Assembly (NCBI RefSeq): GCF_058153355.1
Contig: NZ_CM177019.1
DNA: 64,000 bases
Strand: one strand, 5' to 3'
The translations under genes were made by a program, and so were the position numbers. Numbering within the stretch: position 1 is the first letter of the stretch; the number at the start of each line of letters is the position of its first letter. Below are positions 52,707 through 57,976 of this stretch, one piece after another. The notes under the pieces were generated by a model. It made no database searches. It was given only the letters and a program-made list of their open reading frames with translations, and was not told the origin of the DNA.

Positions 52707-52780
52707 GCGGGCGTAGTTCAATGGTAGAACGAGAGCTTCCCAAGCTCTATACGAGGGTTCGATTCCCTTCGTCCGCTCCA
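52707..52780 (+). tRNA. glyU: tRNA-Gly (anticodon CCC)
   Basis: 74-nt sequence gcgggcgtagttcaatggtagaacgagagcttcccaagctctatacgagggttcgattcccttcgtccgctcca with cloverleaf arms and encoded CCA; the island starts immediately 3' of it. Confidence 0.92.
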
Positions 52781-52944: not shown

Positions 52945-54309
52945 ATGCTGCTTTCAGACCTTGCCATCAGGCGCGCGAAGCCGAAAGAAAAGGCTTATAC
53001 ACTCAATGACGGTAACGGGCTTTCGTTGCTCATTGAGCCGAACGGTTCGAAAGGGTGGCGACTGCGCTACAGGTTTGCAGGAAAGCCCAAAATGTTGTCG
53101 TTGGGTGTGTACCCTGATGTGTCTCTGTCTGATGCCAGGGCGGCAAGGGATGAGGCTAAAAGGCTTCTTGCTGGTGGTATAAATCCAAGTGAGGCCAGAA
53201 AAGCCCAAAAGCGAGAACAGGCGAGCAAATTTGGCAATACTTTTGAGGGTATCGCTCGCGAATGGTACGAAAAGCGGATCGACAGGTGGTCATCGTCATA
53301 CGCCGAGGAAATGATCGAGACGTTTGAAAAAGACGTTTTTCCGTACATTGGCGGTAGGCCGATCGCAGAAATTAAGCCGATGGAATTGCTGGCGGTTCTT
53401 TCCCGTCTTAATGACCGTGGTGCGACTGAAAAATTGCGTAAGGTTCGCCAGCGATGTGGCGAGGTGTTCCGGTACGCAATCATCACCGGACGCGCCGAAT
53501 ATAATCCAGCCCCTGACCTGGTGAGCGCATTTGCTCCACATAAAAAAGAGCATTACGCCTGTTTGAAGGCCGATGAACTGCCGGAATTTTTCCGCGTTTT
53601 TAATACGTACACCGGAAGCCAGATCGTCAAACTGGCAATGCGGCTATTAATTCTGACAGGTGTCAGACCCGGGGAATTACGGCAGGCAGAATGGCGGGAG
53701 ATCGATTTTGATAATCGTTTGTGGGAAGTGCCTAAAGAACGAATGAAGATGCGCCGTCCGCATTGCGTGCCATTACCAGAACAGGCGATAAAAATACTGG
53801 AGCAGTTAAAAAACATGACAGGTCAGTATCAGTTTATTTTCCCCGGTCGTATTCACCACAGTAAACCAATGAGTGAAATGGCAATGAATGTGCTCATTCG
53901 TCGTATTGGCTACGCCGGGCGCGTTACTGGTCATGGATTCCGGCACACCATGAGCACCATTTTGCATGAGCAGGGCTATAACACCGCGTGGATAGAGACA
54001 CAGCTTGCGCACGCCGATAAAAACTCAATTCGTGGCACATACAACCATGCGCAATATCTGGATGGCAGACGCGAAATGCTCCAGTGGTATGCCGACTATA
54101 TGGATTCGCTCGAGCATGGCGGAAATGTGGTGCATGGTGAGTTCGGAAAATGCGGGGGACTGGTTGAGTATACAGTAGTAGACTTTGAGCGACTAAAAAC
54201 GGCTGTGTCTAGGGTCGCTCCTGAAAACCCGTACACCTCTGCGGGCTGGCACAGCCACTATGGTAGAGGGCGCGAGGTGACGCGTGATCGATATTGCCGA
54301 ATTACTTAA
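52945..54309 (+). CDS. int: tyrosine-type site-specific integrase, P4-like (tRNA-associated)
   Basis: ORF 52906..54309; start assigned to ATG 52945 with GGAG 8 nt upstream (MLLSDLAIRRAKPKEKAYTLNDGNGLSLLIEPNGSKGWRLRYRF...); C-terminal catalytic residues (HGFRHTMST, Y in GTYNHAQY). Confidence 0.9.
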   Translation: MLLSDLAIRRAKPKEKAYTLNDGNGLSLLIEPNGSKGWRLRYRFAGKPKMLSLGVYPDVSLSDARAARDEAKRLLAGGINPSEARKAQKREQASKFGNTFEGIAREWYEKRIDRWSSSYAEEMIETFEKDVFPYIGGRPIAEIKPMELLAVLSRLNDRGATEKLRKVRQRCGEVFRYAIITGRAEYNPAPDLVSAFAPHKKEHYACLKADELPEFFRVFNTYTGSQIVKLAMRLLILTGVRPGELRQAEWREIDFDNRLWEVPKERMKMRRPHCVPLPEQAIKILEQLKNMTGQYQFIFPGRIHHSKPMSEMAMNVLIRRIGYAGRVTGHGFRHTMSTILHEQGYNTAWIETQLAHADKNSIRGTYNHAQYLDGRREMLQWYADYMDSLEHGGNVVHGEFGKCGGLVEYTVVDFERLKTAVSRVAPENPYTSAGWHSHYGRGREVTRDRYCRIT

Positions 54310-54604
54310 CGCAGAAAAGAATAATTTCATTAGCCTGAGAGAGTTAATAGAGCGTATTAAATTATCTCAACCGAAAGCTACTACATCCCAGATAGTAAGT
54401 TTTCTTTATCAGACGCGGCAGAAATTACCCGAATGGGTTAAGTGGGATGAAATGATGGGCATTGAGCAAACATCGGAGAATCCTTTTGATGGGGATTGGT
54501 CTTTATCAGAGGTTCTTGAAGGCATTTTAAGACTAGGCTTTGTGCCAGAGGTTGAAGATTCTGTACCCCTCGCTATCGATGATAGCGACGATATTCCGTA
54601 TTGA
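54284..54604 (+). CDS. hypothetical protein (106 aa, AT-rich gene; GTG start, overlaps int 3' end)
   Basis: ORF with SD-like gagg upstream of GTG 54284; no recognisable domain; start uncertain. Confidence 0.45.
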   Translation: MIDIAELLNAEKNNFISLRELIERIKLSQPKATTSQIVSFLYQTRQKLPEWVKWDEMMGIEQTSENPFDGDWSLSEVLEGILRLGFVPEVEDSVPLAIDDSDDIPY

Positions 54605-54623
54605 TGAAGACTTAAGGTGAATT

Positions 54624-55067
54624 ATGGCAGATGAAGTTTATTTGGCTCGTGCTTGTGATAAGTATGGTTTTCGTCGAGCAGAGCTTAAAGAATTTGCTGA
54701 AAAACTAGGGGTTAATTTATTTTCCCCAATGGATGAAATAACCCAGTCCATTCCTGAGGTTGCTGCTAGTGATTCTTTGAATAATGGGCCGACTGTTGAT
54801 GAATTACGTGCGGAAATTGCTTTACTTAAAGCGCGAATTGAAGAACTTGAAAGCGAACGACCAATTCTCTTAAATAAATACAGGGATAATGATCCGCTAT
54901 ATCTGGCTATCGAGATTAGAAACAGAGAGTGGGCCAATTACGACCCGGAGAATGATCGCGCCACCAGGGGAAACCAGGGCGCGATTACTACTGAGCTTGA
55001 AAAACGAGGTTTTACCTCCCGACAGGCCGCATCTATTGAGCTTGTCGCCTGTCCTATCAAACGATGA
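54624..55067 (+). CDS. hypothetical protein (147 aa, predicted coiled-coil segment)
   Basis: ATG with SD aaggtga 7 nt upstream; heptad-like VDELRAEIALLKARIEELESE; no recognisable domain. Confidence 0.55.
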   Translation: MADEVYLARACDKYGFRRAELKEFAEKLGVNLFSPMDEITQSIPEVAASDSLNNGPTVDELRAEIALLKARIEELESERPILLNKYRDNDPLYLAIEIRNREWANYDPENDRATRGNQGAITTELEKRGFTSRQAASIELVACPIKR

Positions 55068-55072
55068 AGCCT

Positions 55073-55219
55073 TACCCTAGAGGTATCTCATGTTTTGTTC
55101 GCGTCTCACCCTAAGGGTAATCAGACCTCACCCTTAGGGTATTTTTGTATGCTTTCCCATCAATTTTACTATTACCCTTAGGGTAAAAATATTCCCGATT
55201 ACCATTAGGCCTGAGGGTA
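55073..55219. promoter_or_regulatory. array of palindromic operator-like sites (consensus ACCCTwAGGGT) upstream of alpA
   Basis: Sites at 55073-55085 (taccctagaggta, imperfect), 55109-55119 (accctaagggt), 55130-55140 (acccttagggt), 55174-55184 (acccttagggt) and a half-site gagggta at 55213-55219. Confidence 0.6.
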
Positions 55220-55287
55220 TGAAAATATTCGTTATTTCTGTGCCATGATTACCTCGTCAAATTGAGTAGACGTTATGAGGTAAATAT

Positions 55288-55485
55288 ATGTCAAATACGC
55301 TTATTCGTTTAACGGAAGTTCAGCGTAGAACTGGATATAGCAAGGCATGGATTTATCGCCTTATGGGGCAAGGTAAATTTCCTGCATCAGTTAAAATTGG
55401 CTCGCGAGCTATTGCTTTCGTTGAGAGTGAAATTGACGAGTGGATTAATCAGCGTATTGCTGAATCACGCGGAACAGCTACCTGA
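55288..55485 (+). CDS. alpA: AlpA-family phage/island transcriptional regulator (excisionase-like HTH)
   Basis: 65-aa ORF MSNTLIRLTEVQRRTGYSKAWIYRLMGQGKFPASVKIGSRAIAFVESEIDEWI..., strong SD gaggtaaa. Confidence 0.85.
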   Translation: MSNTLIRLTEVQRRTGYSKAWIYRLMGQGKFPASVKIGSRAIAFVESEIDEWINQRIAESRGTAT

Positions 55486-55563
55486 TTAAATGGCTACGGG
55501 GCCAGAAGCCCCAGCTATCCACCAGCAAATAAAAAGTAACTTAATTCGATAGCAGGAGTTTTT

Positions 55564-56364
55564 ATGAAATTTCCAAAAACGCCCATACAGGGGCAGGGCT
55601 TCGTTCGGCTTGAAAACCAGAATCTGCAAAATTTTGGCAAAATTATCCCGGTTATTTCCGGCGTTATTGGCGGGCGTGAAACCAATATTGTTAGCGCCAG
55701 AGCGTTGCATAAGGCGCTCGGGGTAGGCCGTGATTTCACAACCTGGATTAAAGTACGCATTGATGAGTACGGATTTAAAAAGGGCGTGGATTTTGAATTC
55801 GTAGAAAATTTGACCTCCCCCAATCCGGTGAGCGCAAAATCTCGCCAACGTATAGAGCACGACTACCTGAGCACTATCAACATGGCGAAAGAACTGGCGA
55901 TGGTCGAACGCACCGAACAGGGCCGCGCCGTTCGTCAGTATTTCATCAAATGCGAGGAGGAGCTACACAAGGTAGCGCCTGTGCGTTCCGCAGCGTTACG
56001 CCGGGAACTGAAAGCCCGTATCACTGTTGCCAGCTACTTTAAGCCAATGTGCGCCGCGCTGGAGGCGTACCGGGCAGAACTGGGTAAAAACACTCTACAG
56101 CACCACTACACCACGGAAGCTAATATGCTGGCGCGTATCGTGCTGGGTGGCATGACTGCAAAACAGTGGGCACTGGCGAACGGCATCACAAGCGAACCAC
56201 GCGACCACATGAGCACGTTGCAGCTTGAGCACCTTTCTTACCTTGAGCAGAGCAATATCACGCTGATTGAGTTAGGCCAGGACTACCACCAGCGGAAAGC
56301 TGAATTAATTCGTCTTTCGCAGCGCTGGTTAGCCCGTCGCATGGAGGAAAACAACCATGTGTAA
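55564..56364 (+). CDS. phage antirepressor-like protein (AntA/KilAC-type domains)
   Basis: 266-aa ORF with SD aggag; N-terminal region resembles AntA/Bro-type antirepressor domain; assignment by recall, moderate confidence. Confidence 0.6.
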   Translation: MKFPKTPIQGQGFVRLENQNLQNFGKIIPVISGVIGGRETNIVSARALHKALGVGRDFTTWIKVRIDEYGFKKGVDFEFVENLTSPNPVSAKSRQRIEHDYLSTINMAKELAMVERTEQGRAVRQYFIKCEEELHKVAPVRSAALRRELKARITVASYFKPMCAALEAYRAELGKNTLQHHYTTEANMLARIVLGGMTAKQWALANGITSEPRDHMSTLQLEHLSYLEQSNITLIELGQDYHQRKAELIRLSQRWLARRMEENNHV

Positions 56365-57018
56365 CGCTCTGACCGTTACAAAAAGAGAAAGCGCCCCGTT
56401 GCCGGAGCGCCTTTGTGAACGAATAGCCTACTGCGCCATATTGCTTACTGTCTACGAGGCAGATTATAGCGTTGTGGTCGCACAGAGTGAAGGCACTGAT
56501 CACCGTTACTACAGCACGCCAGAAATGCAGAATATTTTGCTGCAAAATGCCGCTGGCCACGCTGTCCGGAAAGCAAAAAATTTTGCTGGTGGCGCGACTG
56601 ATACGATTTTTTCTGGTCGCCAGGTGCTGATCAATCTGATGTCTGATTTCGTTCTGGATAAAACAAAGGCGACCGCAGAGGGCCACCAGTGGGAAAGCTA
56701 CACACTTGAACACATCGCCAACAATGCCAGATTTGCGGCTGGTGGGCAATGTGATCAGTGTGTTGGCTTGCTGGTGGGCTGTTCGTCTGGTTCAGTCCGT
56801 TGCCATGCATGGAGTGAACGCATTTTCCAGGAATACTCTTTGAGGTACTTCTCAAGAGCAAACGCACACGGGGCGAATCTCTCCGGTTCATGTTCGTTTA
56901 CCGCATTTTTGCGTTGTTTTTTCCTGGATGAGGATAATTTCTTTAATGATTTGTCAGTCATCGTATATACCTGTAACCCTGTGCGCCACAGTTCACTGCA
57001 CCACGGCGCTGATGGTGA

Positions 57019-57198
57019 TTACTCTGATTCTTTGGCCTTGCGGCGCTGGCGGCGTTTGATCTCACCTTCAAGTGCCGAAACGATAAATTGTCCAGTGCTT
57101 TCGCCTTCTTCCTTTAAACTTTCTACAGCGTCAGCTATTGCATGGGGTACTCGTGCCTCAAGTTTTTTTGATTTTCCATTAACTGCTTTCGTTGCCAT
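57019..57198 (-). CDS. ribbon-helix-helix (CopG/Arc-like) DNA-binding protein
   Basis: 59 aa MATKAVNGKSKKLEARVPHAIADAVESLKEEGESTGQFIVSALEGEIKRRQRRKAKESE; beta-strand then two helices typical of RHH; SD aaggga upstream; divergent from the promoter at 57260-57288. Confidence 0.6.
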   Translation of the reverse strand: MATKAVNGKSKKLEARVPHAIADAVESLKEEGESTGQFIVSALEGEIKRRQRRKAKESE

Positions 57199-57219
57199 AT
57201 CTGATTCCCTTGTTATTAG

Positions 57220-57299
57220 GTGGCTGACAGTATACACACAAGAAAATGGAAAAACACTATTGACGTGGCTGACACCTGTTACTAGTATAGTGGCTGACA
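57220..57299 (+). promoter_or_regulatory. near-consensus sigma70 promoter (TTGACG-17 bp-TAGTAT) overlapped by three direct repeats GTGGCTGACA
   Basis: -35 ttgacg 57260-57265, -10 tagtat 57283-57288; direct repeats at 57220-57229, 57265-57274 and 57290-57299. Confidence 0.6.
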
Positions 57300-57562
57300 C
57301 CTTTATTAAGGTAATCGATGAAAAGACAAAGCCCGCAGGCGCTACCAACACCAACGGGCTTCTAACCACCAACGATAGAAAGCGTATCGAGGTAGCTATG
57401 TTAAATCATACCACACACCCGCAAGGGCGGGACTCGCACAACCTGAATAAAGCGGGGGTAAAAAACCAGTTGATCGCCACTGCCAGCCAGGGCTATGATT
57501 TATCTGCACCAGCAAAATCTGGTGCCCGGATTGGCGTCCTGAAAATTCTGAAGGCGACATAT

Positions 57563-57584
57563 GACGCGCCGAGCGTCTTTTTTT
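57563..57584 (+). terminator. intrinsic terminator-like hairpin plus T-run inside the leader downstream of the promoter
   Basis: gacgcgccgagcgtc (5-bp stem) followed by ttttttt. Confidence 0.45.
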
Positions 57585-57787
57585 ATGTCGTAGGTCTGAC
57601 TCACCCATTTTTTGGGCGTTGGTGTATAATCCAGCGCCTTTGTCAATCAATGGTGGCTCAGGCGGGGGCTTCTTCGGAAGCGCCGGTATCCTTCAGAGCC
57701 GGTTACGCCAACCCTGTCTGGGCTACCACCAGCGAAATTGGCGTTTCCGGTGGTAGCGTAACCTGCTATCTGAAGGAGGCTGCCGAC

Positions 57788-57976
57788 ATGGCTACTACCC
57801 CTACCCTTGTACATTCTCAAACCGTCTTTCTCTGGCGCTTTATCGCCCTGAGCACAGCACAACCGCGCGTGATTCACATCGTGGCCACCAGCGAACAGGA
57901 AGCCCGCCAGCAATCTCCGGCTGGCTGCGTGATGGTATTCGCCGCCCGTATTCGTCAGGAGGTGGGCCATGATTAA
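57788..57976 (+). CDS. small hypothetical protein (62 aa) of the island early operon
   Basis: ATG 57788 preceded by SD gaaggagg; stop overlaps the next start (atgattaa). Confidence 0.55.
   Translation: MATTPTLVHSQTVFLWRFIALSTAQPRVIHIVATSEQEARQQSPAGCVMVFAARIRQEVGHD

Follow-up and report, generated by a model that had tools for sequence, protein, structure and literature searches.

A conserved two-gene module with an SSB-like tail between int and alpA of a glyU island is a candidate regulator of alpA

Introduction

What do two small low-GC genes do between the integrase gene (int) and the regulatory gene alpA of a chromosomal island? This question is raised by a stretch of 64,000 nucleotides from contig NZ_CM177019.1 (RefSeq assembly GCF_058153355.1), the whole of which was analyzed here and is called the window. 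In it, two open reading frames (ORFs), termed ORF1 (gene A) and ORF2 (gene B), follow a P4-type int at glyU, the tRNA-Gly(CCC) gene that is the integration site of the island and marks its attL side (Table 1). The original prediction described them as two uncharacterized genes of lower GC than their surroundings, lying between int and alpA of a satellite-type glyU island, which holds; it also took their position for one that carries variable cargo such as defense, anti-defense, or immunity functions, which had to be largely revised.

The window island contains tRNA-Gly, int, alpA, antA, C4/isrK RNAs, a DUF4222 gene, and a D5_N primase gene, and this layout, known here from genes alone, is that of a Gram-negative phage-inducible chromosomal island (PICI). 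Such islands comprise an integration zone, a Bro/Ant zone with C4-type immunity RNAs, and a replication zone with a primase (PMC10111431). The helper-induced master activator of Gram-negative PICIs is alpA (PMC6092414, PMC11773190), while their global repressor is reported to be unclear and their phage inducer unknown (PMC6092414). The most economical reading of the anatomy described below is that A and B make up a two-subunit, or fused, DNA-binding regulator that would act on the alpA control region through the C-terminal domain of B. We tentatively regard them as two subunits of one regulatory module, consisting of a leader RNA, A, B, a palindrome array, and alpA, in a PICI-type lineage of Gram-negative bacteria.

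A and B form a conserved pair between int and alpA

To place the two genes in a wider context, 16 distinct loci fetched singly and 43 loci from IMG/VR were compared; a scan of genome contigs gave only 5 loci, and IMG/VR proved much richer. Results revealed that the order int, A (100 to 125 aa), B, and alpA recurred in every related locus fetched, at different attachment (att) sites, in Salmonella, Enterobacter, Proteus, Kluyvera, Pantoea, Raoultella, one Orbaceae genome, and metagenomes. In all, about 70 loci, from Enterobacterales and this Orbaceae genome, show the order. The IMG/VR loci were divided into 17 with split genes, 24 with a fused gene, and 2 with a truncated B, all of them followed by alpA, and each of the 17 split loci had an upstream A ending in -IPF (one recovered by hand). 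A and B were always adjacent and co-oriented, and were sometimes translationally coupled, as in Salmonella, where the A stop and the B start overlap by 4 nt (ATGA), or fused. Homologues of ORF2 measured 144 to 155 aa in Salmonella, Klebsiella, Enterobacter, Serratia, Proteus, Yersinia, Pectobacterium, and Morganella, and 243 to 257 aa in Escherichia coli; these long E. coli proteins are A-B fusions, with N termini that align with ORF1 and C termini that align with ORF2. Outside E. coli, split genes are the norm, while fused alleles without the C-terminal tail of A are the commonest form in E. coli.

Thus, the co-occurrence analysis across islands that had been proposed along with the original prediction found A and B together in each related locus examined, whether as separate genes or as a fusion. 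The slot does not behave as a place for interchangeable cargo, since the same A and B families fill it in every related locus examined, with their own leader RNA and array, and the unrelated genes that would mark a hotspot of variable cargo were not found there. The position is variable in a narrower sense: the middle of the A/B cassette is hypervariable, with alleles swapped between islands that are ∼95% identical, and the module as a whole is optional among PICIs. Neither A nor B, nor the leader RNA, nor the array was present in EcCICFT073 and EcCIMP1, the two experimentally studied E. coli PICIs examined. Like the window island, both have a P4-type int and alpA in the same orientation at a tRNA gene, after which come an AntA/Bro zone that includes C4/isrK RNAs and, next, a primase; they differ from it in an empty int-alpA gap with other repeats. 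EcCIMP1_002, a gene between int and alpA, was considered as a homologue and rejected, the EcCIMP1 gap being free of A/B, leader RNA, and palindromes.

Predicted complex of A and B

Gene B consists of an N-terminal segment with a YGFRR motif (residues 1 to 40), a disordered spacer, a leucine-zipper-like helix (58 to 78), and a helical C-terminal domain, which is conserved over residues ∼80 to 147 (...IRNREW..YD...IELVACPIKR). The N-terminal motif, [YF]GF[RK]R, is kept even where the rest of B has been replaced. Structure prediction, also proposed earlier, was run with AlphaFold2 (AF2) on B alone and on A joined to B. For B alone, the model was all helical and of mediocre quality (predicted local distance difference test [pLDDT] score of 72), with a long helix at 58 to 78 and three to four helices at 91 to 142. 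The coiled-coil-like segment noticed in the 147-aa ORF is supported by this long helix, and B gave only weak bZIP/TSC22/HALZ matches.

The complex was modeled as a single B-(GS)15-A chain with a partly paired alignment. Residues 1 to 40 of B, which had pLDDT values of 55 to 69 in the model of B alone, rose to 86 to 97 with A, and a new beta-strand was formed at YGFR (14 to 17). Considering the natural fusions, the conservation of [YF]GF[RK]R, and this rise in model confidence, the results support a physical A-B complex, predicted to be held together by the globular domain of A and the N terminus of B.

A third unannotated N-terminal domain (∼LPxxIxRxxIISAxxAAxALxG) was also observed, fused before A or onto a B-type C terminus (P0086, P0093, L015:624-1352, L071, and L072), which suggests, from the sequences, domain shuffling within the module.

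The C-terminal domain of B tracks a palindrome array upstream of alpA

Between B and alpA lies an array of five copies of (T)ACCCTnAGGGT(A). Three perfect palindromes fall within 77 bp, versus ∼1 expected (with at most one mismatch) in the 64-kb window, and none of 100 shuffles reached the observed count. An array of similar number and spacing occurs across genera, in all loci with a conserved B C-terminal domain (degenerate in L067), and in the Orbaceae locus the 5+N+5 architecture is kept with changed bases (ACTATnATAGT).

Loci in which the types of B and AlpA are uncoupled bear on which protein would bind these sites. In L017 and L019, AlpA is 71 to 85% identical to that of array-bearing loci and the B C terminus is unrelated; palindromes are absent there, with other repeats in their place. 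In L015 and L071, AlpA is of a different type (type 2; 34% identity), the C terminus is of the B type, and CCCTCA/TGAGGG sites are kept. Palindromes or CCCT/AGGG half-sites accompany the conserved C-terminal domain of B with AlpA of type 1 and of type 2 alike. Since the array follows the C terminus of B and not the type of AlpA, B is the likely array binder on this correlative evidence, its C-terminal domain appearing to track the palindromes independently of the AlpA type. The alternative that the array is an AlpA site is disfavored by the same contrast.

Farther downstream, a hairpin in the alpA leader (55249 to 55283) pairs UUACCUCGU with AUGAGGUAA and covers the alpA Shine-Dalgarno (SD) sequence. 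A similar pairing (CTCGTAA/TTACGAG) was seen in other genera. Energetically, the window hairpin is not supported, since it folds no more stably than shuffled sequence does (z = −0.36).

The C terminus of gene A copies the SSB tip

The C-terminal tip of SSB, the protein that binds single-stranded DNA, is the peptide on which 17 or more genome-maintenance enzymes dock, as do phage annealases. Its hexapeptide, DDDIPF, serves as a docking site for many genome-maintenance proteins (PMC5872125, PMC10018359), and phage RecT proteins recognize the last 7 residues of SSB (bioRxiv 10.1101/2020.04.14.041095). Gene A is predicted to encode a winged-helix-like globular domain (residues ∼1 to 85), a short variable linker, and the acidic C-terminal tip DDSDDIPY. 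The domain has the family consensus MxDIxExLKxxxxEFISLRELIxRI... and the AF2 topology H-E-H-H-E-E-H (pLDDT of 90 to 97), which is not an oligonucleotide/oligosaccharide-binding (OB) fold, while the tail scored a pLDDT at or below 60 in the A-B model and was thus undocked.

The tip was compared in an alignment of 20 diverged A proteins, many of them <50% identical to one another. Phe is the last residue in 19 of the 20, Pro stands at position −2 in 19, Ile at −3 in 17, and Asp at −4 in 16; 17 of the proteins end in IPF, and 7 have the ending (E/S)PPMDFDDDIPF, the same as in E. coli SSB. The linker before the tip varies from 0 to ∼30 residues and is often proline rich. Correspondingly, the A-family profile aligned at its extreme C terminus to residues 161 to 178 of E. 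coli SSB (1eqq_A; PAAPSNEPPMDFDD-DIPF), and the translation of K-12 ssb ends in SNEPPMDFDDDIPF. The codons for an identical tip peptide vary synonymously between loci (GAT/GAC, CCA/CCG/CCT, TTC/TTT, and ATT/ATA), suggesting that the tip is kept by selection and is not a recent DNA capture. In the allele of the window, the tip DDSDDIPY is common to all 17 contigs that carry it.

Judged by sequence, the C terminus of A is therefore a mimic of the SSB C-terminal tip: many A proteins share the same last 9 to 12 residues with the SSB tail (...PPMDFDDDIPF), at the very C terminus and after a variable linker. A itself is not an SSB, having the acidic tip and lacking the OB fold of that family; Pfam SSB (PF00436) did not match ORF1 or any of 18 A-family members, and the globular part of A is, in contrast to SSB, winged-helix-like and predicted to pair with a second protein. 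This appears to be the first case found of a non-SSB mobile-element protein with a faithful copy of the SSB C-terminal tip. No prior description of the A/B genes was found in the literature on SSB-tip mimics, int-alpA, and PICI repressors or inducers, of which coverage was incomplete.

In related islands, SSB proteins themselves are encoded. The CFT073 island has its own short SSB downstream of the primase (L026:4538-4948), ending in ...GDDIPF, and a short SSB in this position is also encoded in the related islands L001 and L021. The GDDIPF ending indicates that the network of SSB-tip interactions is used by such elements.

Two alternative roles start from this tail. As a decoy, A, made multivalent by the zipper of B, would titrate SSB-docking proteins and thereby inhibit recombination and replication of helper or competitor phages, or host nucleases, i.e., act in interference or anti-defense, which comes closest to the original prediction. 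Such a role would be in keeping with the mimicry of the tail and its SSB-like linker, with the module being optional, and with a hypervariable, recombining cassette of the kind typical of arms-race genes; moreover, phage RecT proteins depend on the C-terminal seven residues of SSB (bioRxiv 10.1101/2020.04.14.041095). We nevertheless consider it quite unlikely: neither PADLOC nor any other defense family was matched, no other genes take the place of the module in the slot, alleles that have lost the tail by fusion are the commonest ones in E. coli, and titration leaves the leader RNA, the B C-terminal domain, and the co-varying array unexplained.

Alternatively, B could tether the pair at the array while the tip of A recruits host SSB-interacting enzymes (PriA, DnaG, Pol III chi, RecQ, Topo III, and others) or the primase-helicase of the island. 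The task of the module would then be not to regulate alpA but to aid excision, the start of replication, or mending of the circle after excision. A near-perfect SSB C-terminal tail under purifying selection would suit a recruiter, as would the location of the module in the integration zone next to int and the fact that a primase, and often an SSB ending in a DDIPF-type tail, is encoded by the islands themselves. Recruitment is doubtful, however, because the array sits exactly in the promoter/leader region of alpA, fused alleles drop the tail and keep everything else, and the replication origin of Gram-negative PICIs was reported downstream of pri and not near alpA (PMC10111431).

The int-alpA RNA motif is the leader of the A-B operon

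The int-alpA RNA motif (Rfam RF02996) ends 14 nt before the GTG of gene A in the window, and it lies 14 to 15 nt upstream of A in L006, L009, L019, L021, and L014 as well. In the last of these, the Orbaceae locus, int and A are set apart by an additional gene, and the RNA is found next to A. On the basis of this conserved position, we take the motif to be the 5′ leader of the A-B operon, traveling with A rather than with int. The leader region is conserved across genera, with a G>A/C>T double change in its outer stem. The name of the family implies a link to int and alpA, whereas in the window and five further loci the motif directly precedes A as its 5′ leader, and it is absent from PICIs without A/B. 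Thus, an orphan motif could be reassigned to a specific downstream operon, and its name and presumed status as a small RNA may need revisiting. A sigma-70 scan of 54000 to 55700 found no promoter, and no terminator was found on the + strand.

Upstream of the leader RNA, directly after the int stop, is a palindrome, ACTG-N10-CAGT, followed by AGTAGAC repeats (54159 to 54200), and this arrangement is invariant across genera. These elements may serve as a promoter/operator or as an arm site for the integrase.

Proposed role in the control of alpA

We consider it possible, though short of probable, that the A-B complex binds the array and controls alpA and that the tail of A engages SSB-interacting proteins of the host or of a phage. 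In this mechanism, the winged-helix-like domain of A would dock on the N-terminal YGFRR segment of B, B would dimerize through its zipper, and the C-terminal domain of B would bind the palindromes. Expression of alpA would then be set by the complex, the likeliest mode being that alpA is held off or is insulated from read-through of int and A-B. The free SSB-like tip of A would couple the complex to proteins that normally dock on SSB, for which host SSB-interacting enzymes, the replication proteins of the island itself, and helper-phage proteins (annealases of the RecT/Red-beta type) are candidates.

Several observations weigh against this mechanism. The A-B interface is deduced only from model confidence values, and the contrast between B and AlpA comes from few informative loci (L015, L017, L019, and L071). 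AlpA autoregulates its own promoter in EcCICFT073 and could itself be the array binder. Moreover, the half-sites of the 11-bp palindrome are spaced too tightly to accommodate two winged helices in the classical manner, and the studied PICIs are helper inducible without an A-B module. With respect to the tail, A of the window ends in Tyr and not in Phe, and fused A-B alleles are without the SSB-like tip, indicating that the core function does not require the tip.

An extension of the mechanism would make the module a sensor of helper phages. The Stl repressor of SaPI2 is released by phage recombinases; together with the recognition of the SSB tail by RecT, this makes such a role conceivable, albeit rather unlikely. 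In it, B would hold alpA off at the array while A displays its SSB tip as bait, and phage proteins that dock on SSB (annealases of the RecT/Red-beta type, Orf-like mediators, or replication proteins) would bind the bait, release the complex, and turn the island on. The master repressors of Gram-positive PICIs/SaPIs, Stl/Rpr, are released when they bind proteins of the helper phage. They are like A-B in their position next to int and in the proposed gating of induction, possibly via a helper protein (PMC6092414). A-B differs from them in having no sequence or fold similarity, in being co-oriented with int and alpA instead of divergent, and in consisting of two subunits or a fusion that would act, if at all, on an activator gene, alpA.

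The A-B pair thus offers a testable candidate for the silencing of PICIs and the switching of alpA in one lineage, questions that are open according to PMC6092414. Whether as recruiter, decoy, or sensor, the tip would represent a new way for mobile elements to exploit the SSB hub. If the bait model were true, an integrated decoy of a host hub would serve as a phage detector, and the orphan int-alpA RNA would gain a function as the leader of the module.

A hypervariable cassette in two genuine genes

Both the 106-aa and the 147-aa ORF exist as originally described, each with its own SD sequence. The homologues of ORF2 fall into 76 clusters, which all lack Pfam domains, and ORF1 is matched exactly in other E. 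coli assemblies in addition to 24 profile matches, which identifies them as real genes and not chance ORFs. For both families, the only name given in databases is "hypothetical protein." Their GC contents, 40.5% for ORF1 and 43.7% for ORF2, are indeed lower than those of int (50.3%) and of the whole window (51.0%). The low stretch is the hypervariable cassette, with 40% GC versus 48% in the conserved 3′ part of B. The cassette could not be aligned with the alleles of L001 and L002, while its flanks were ∼95% identical, and the unalignable stretch coincides exactly with the low-GC part. E. coli strains carry either a fused or a split A/B allele at glyU. Among 5,426 complete E. coli genomes, ORF1 DNA gave no blastn match, and in 154 of them only the conserved part is present, which runs from 54869 through alpA.

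Could the pair simply be variable cargo or a decaying remnant, that is, the broken 253-aa gene of other glyU islands or accessory genes without a role in the life cycle? The two lengths, 106 and 147 aa, do add up to the 253 aa of the single gene in L001, and the window island is otherwise decayed. We regard this possibility as very improbable, and the idea of a split pseudogene was rejected as largely refuted by the comparative data: the split form prevails outside E. coli, both genes come with an SD sequence and a start of their own, only split alleles show the conserved C-terminal motif of A, the central regions fail to align instead of differing by a frameshift, and strains with an intact island carry identical A and B.

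That neither protein has a recognizable domain was confirmed by searches of PHROGs, NCBIfam, and PADLOC, none of which gave a family at an E value of ≤0.1 for either ORF, and of Pfam, with no domain at ≤0.001. With 0 families at ≤0.1 for both ORFs among the defense hidden Markov models of PADLOC-DB 2.0, the reading of the pair as defense, anti-defense, or immunity cargo found no matching model. A Pfam scan of 50 relatives of B and 18 relatives of A also yielded no domain, with only weak coiled-coil-type matches for B. Profile searches of PDB sequences gave only chance-level matches, the SSB-tail alignment of the A family apart; a match of B to a C3 ADP-ribosyltransferase (PDB profile, E value of about 0.01) was judged spurious, the matched stretch being noncatalytic. 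In addition, tblastn found no match for A or B in 50,697 phage records or for B in 72,556 plasmid records, suggesting that these genes are not phage or plasmid borne.

State of the integrase and the window island

The window order of xdhA, actS, tRNA-Gly(CCC), and P4-type int is that of the E. coli glyU island site, and this context was also seen in E. coli relatives. The coordinates of the features are compiled in Table 1.

Table 1. Features of the glyU island in the window
Feature	Position	Strand	Remarks
tRNA-Gly(CCC), glyU	52707..52780	+	ARAGORN, Rfam tRNA
P4-type tyrosine integrase ORF (int)	52945..54309	+	Normal protein 52945-54156, 404 aa
int-alpA RNA motif (Rfam RF02996)	54202-54269	+	cmscan 45.5 bits vs gathering 35.8, E 3e-07
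Gene A (ORF1), 106 aa	54284..54604	+	GTG start; SD GAGGTG 4 nt upstream
Low-GC hypervariable cassette	54284..54868	+	All of A and N-terminal two thirds of B
Gene B (ORF2), 147 aa	54624..55067	+	ATG start; SD AAGGTG 4 nt upstream
Array, five copies of (T)ACCCTnAGGGT(A)	55073-55220	.	Between B and alpA; repeat search (direct and inverted repeats)
Palindrome copies	55073-85, 55107-19, 55129-41, 55173-85, split copy 55198-55220		
alpA, AlpA-family regulator/excisionase, 65 aa	55288..55485	+	phrog_2790, phrog_66; Pfam Phage_AlpA in homologous loci
IS66-family element (orfA, orfB, transposase)	58075-60438		Inserted before DUF4222 gene
DUF4222 gene	60853-61152		
D5_N primase, truncated	61149-62189		Adjoins IS110-family transposase
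IS110-family transposase	62248-63423		

The overlap of the GTG start of ORF1 with the int end, pointed out in the original prediction, is present but not native. The int stop has been mutated from TGA to GGA (54157 to 54159), so that the ORF runs on to 54309, through the leader RNA into the start of gene A, adding ∼50 residues. DNA alignment with L001 and L002 revealed TGA at the int end of these relatives, and the matches to phrog_1 and NF007246 stop at residue ∼409 of the 467-aa int ORF. Among assemblies with an identical ORF1 protein, int is of the normal 404 aa in four (L021 to L024) and extended in one (L025).

The loss of this stop, the insertions of IS66- and IS110-family elements, and the shortened primase show that the window island is decayed and defective; consequently, the A-B pair in the window is probably no longer doing its job, though both genes are intact.

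Matches to P1/P7-type immunity RNAs (c4-a1b1, isrK, and C4 antisense) were located at 57493 to 57733, upstream of an Ash/Icd-like ORF, and the same trio was seen in L006, L009, L021, and EcCIMP1. A 539-aa ORF (56357 to 57976) overlaps the C4/isrK RNA genes and a minus-strand YlcI/YnfO-like ORF (57019 to 57372); it is probably overextended, only its C-terminal Ash-like part looking genuine, and its counterpart in L024 is a gene of 192 aa.

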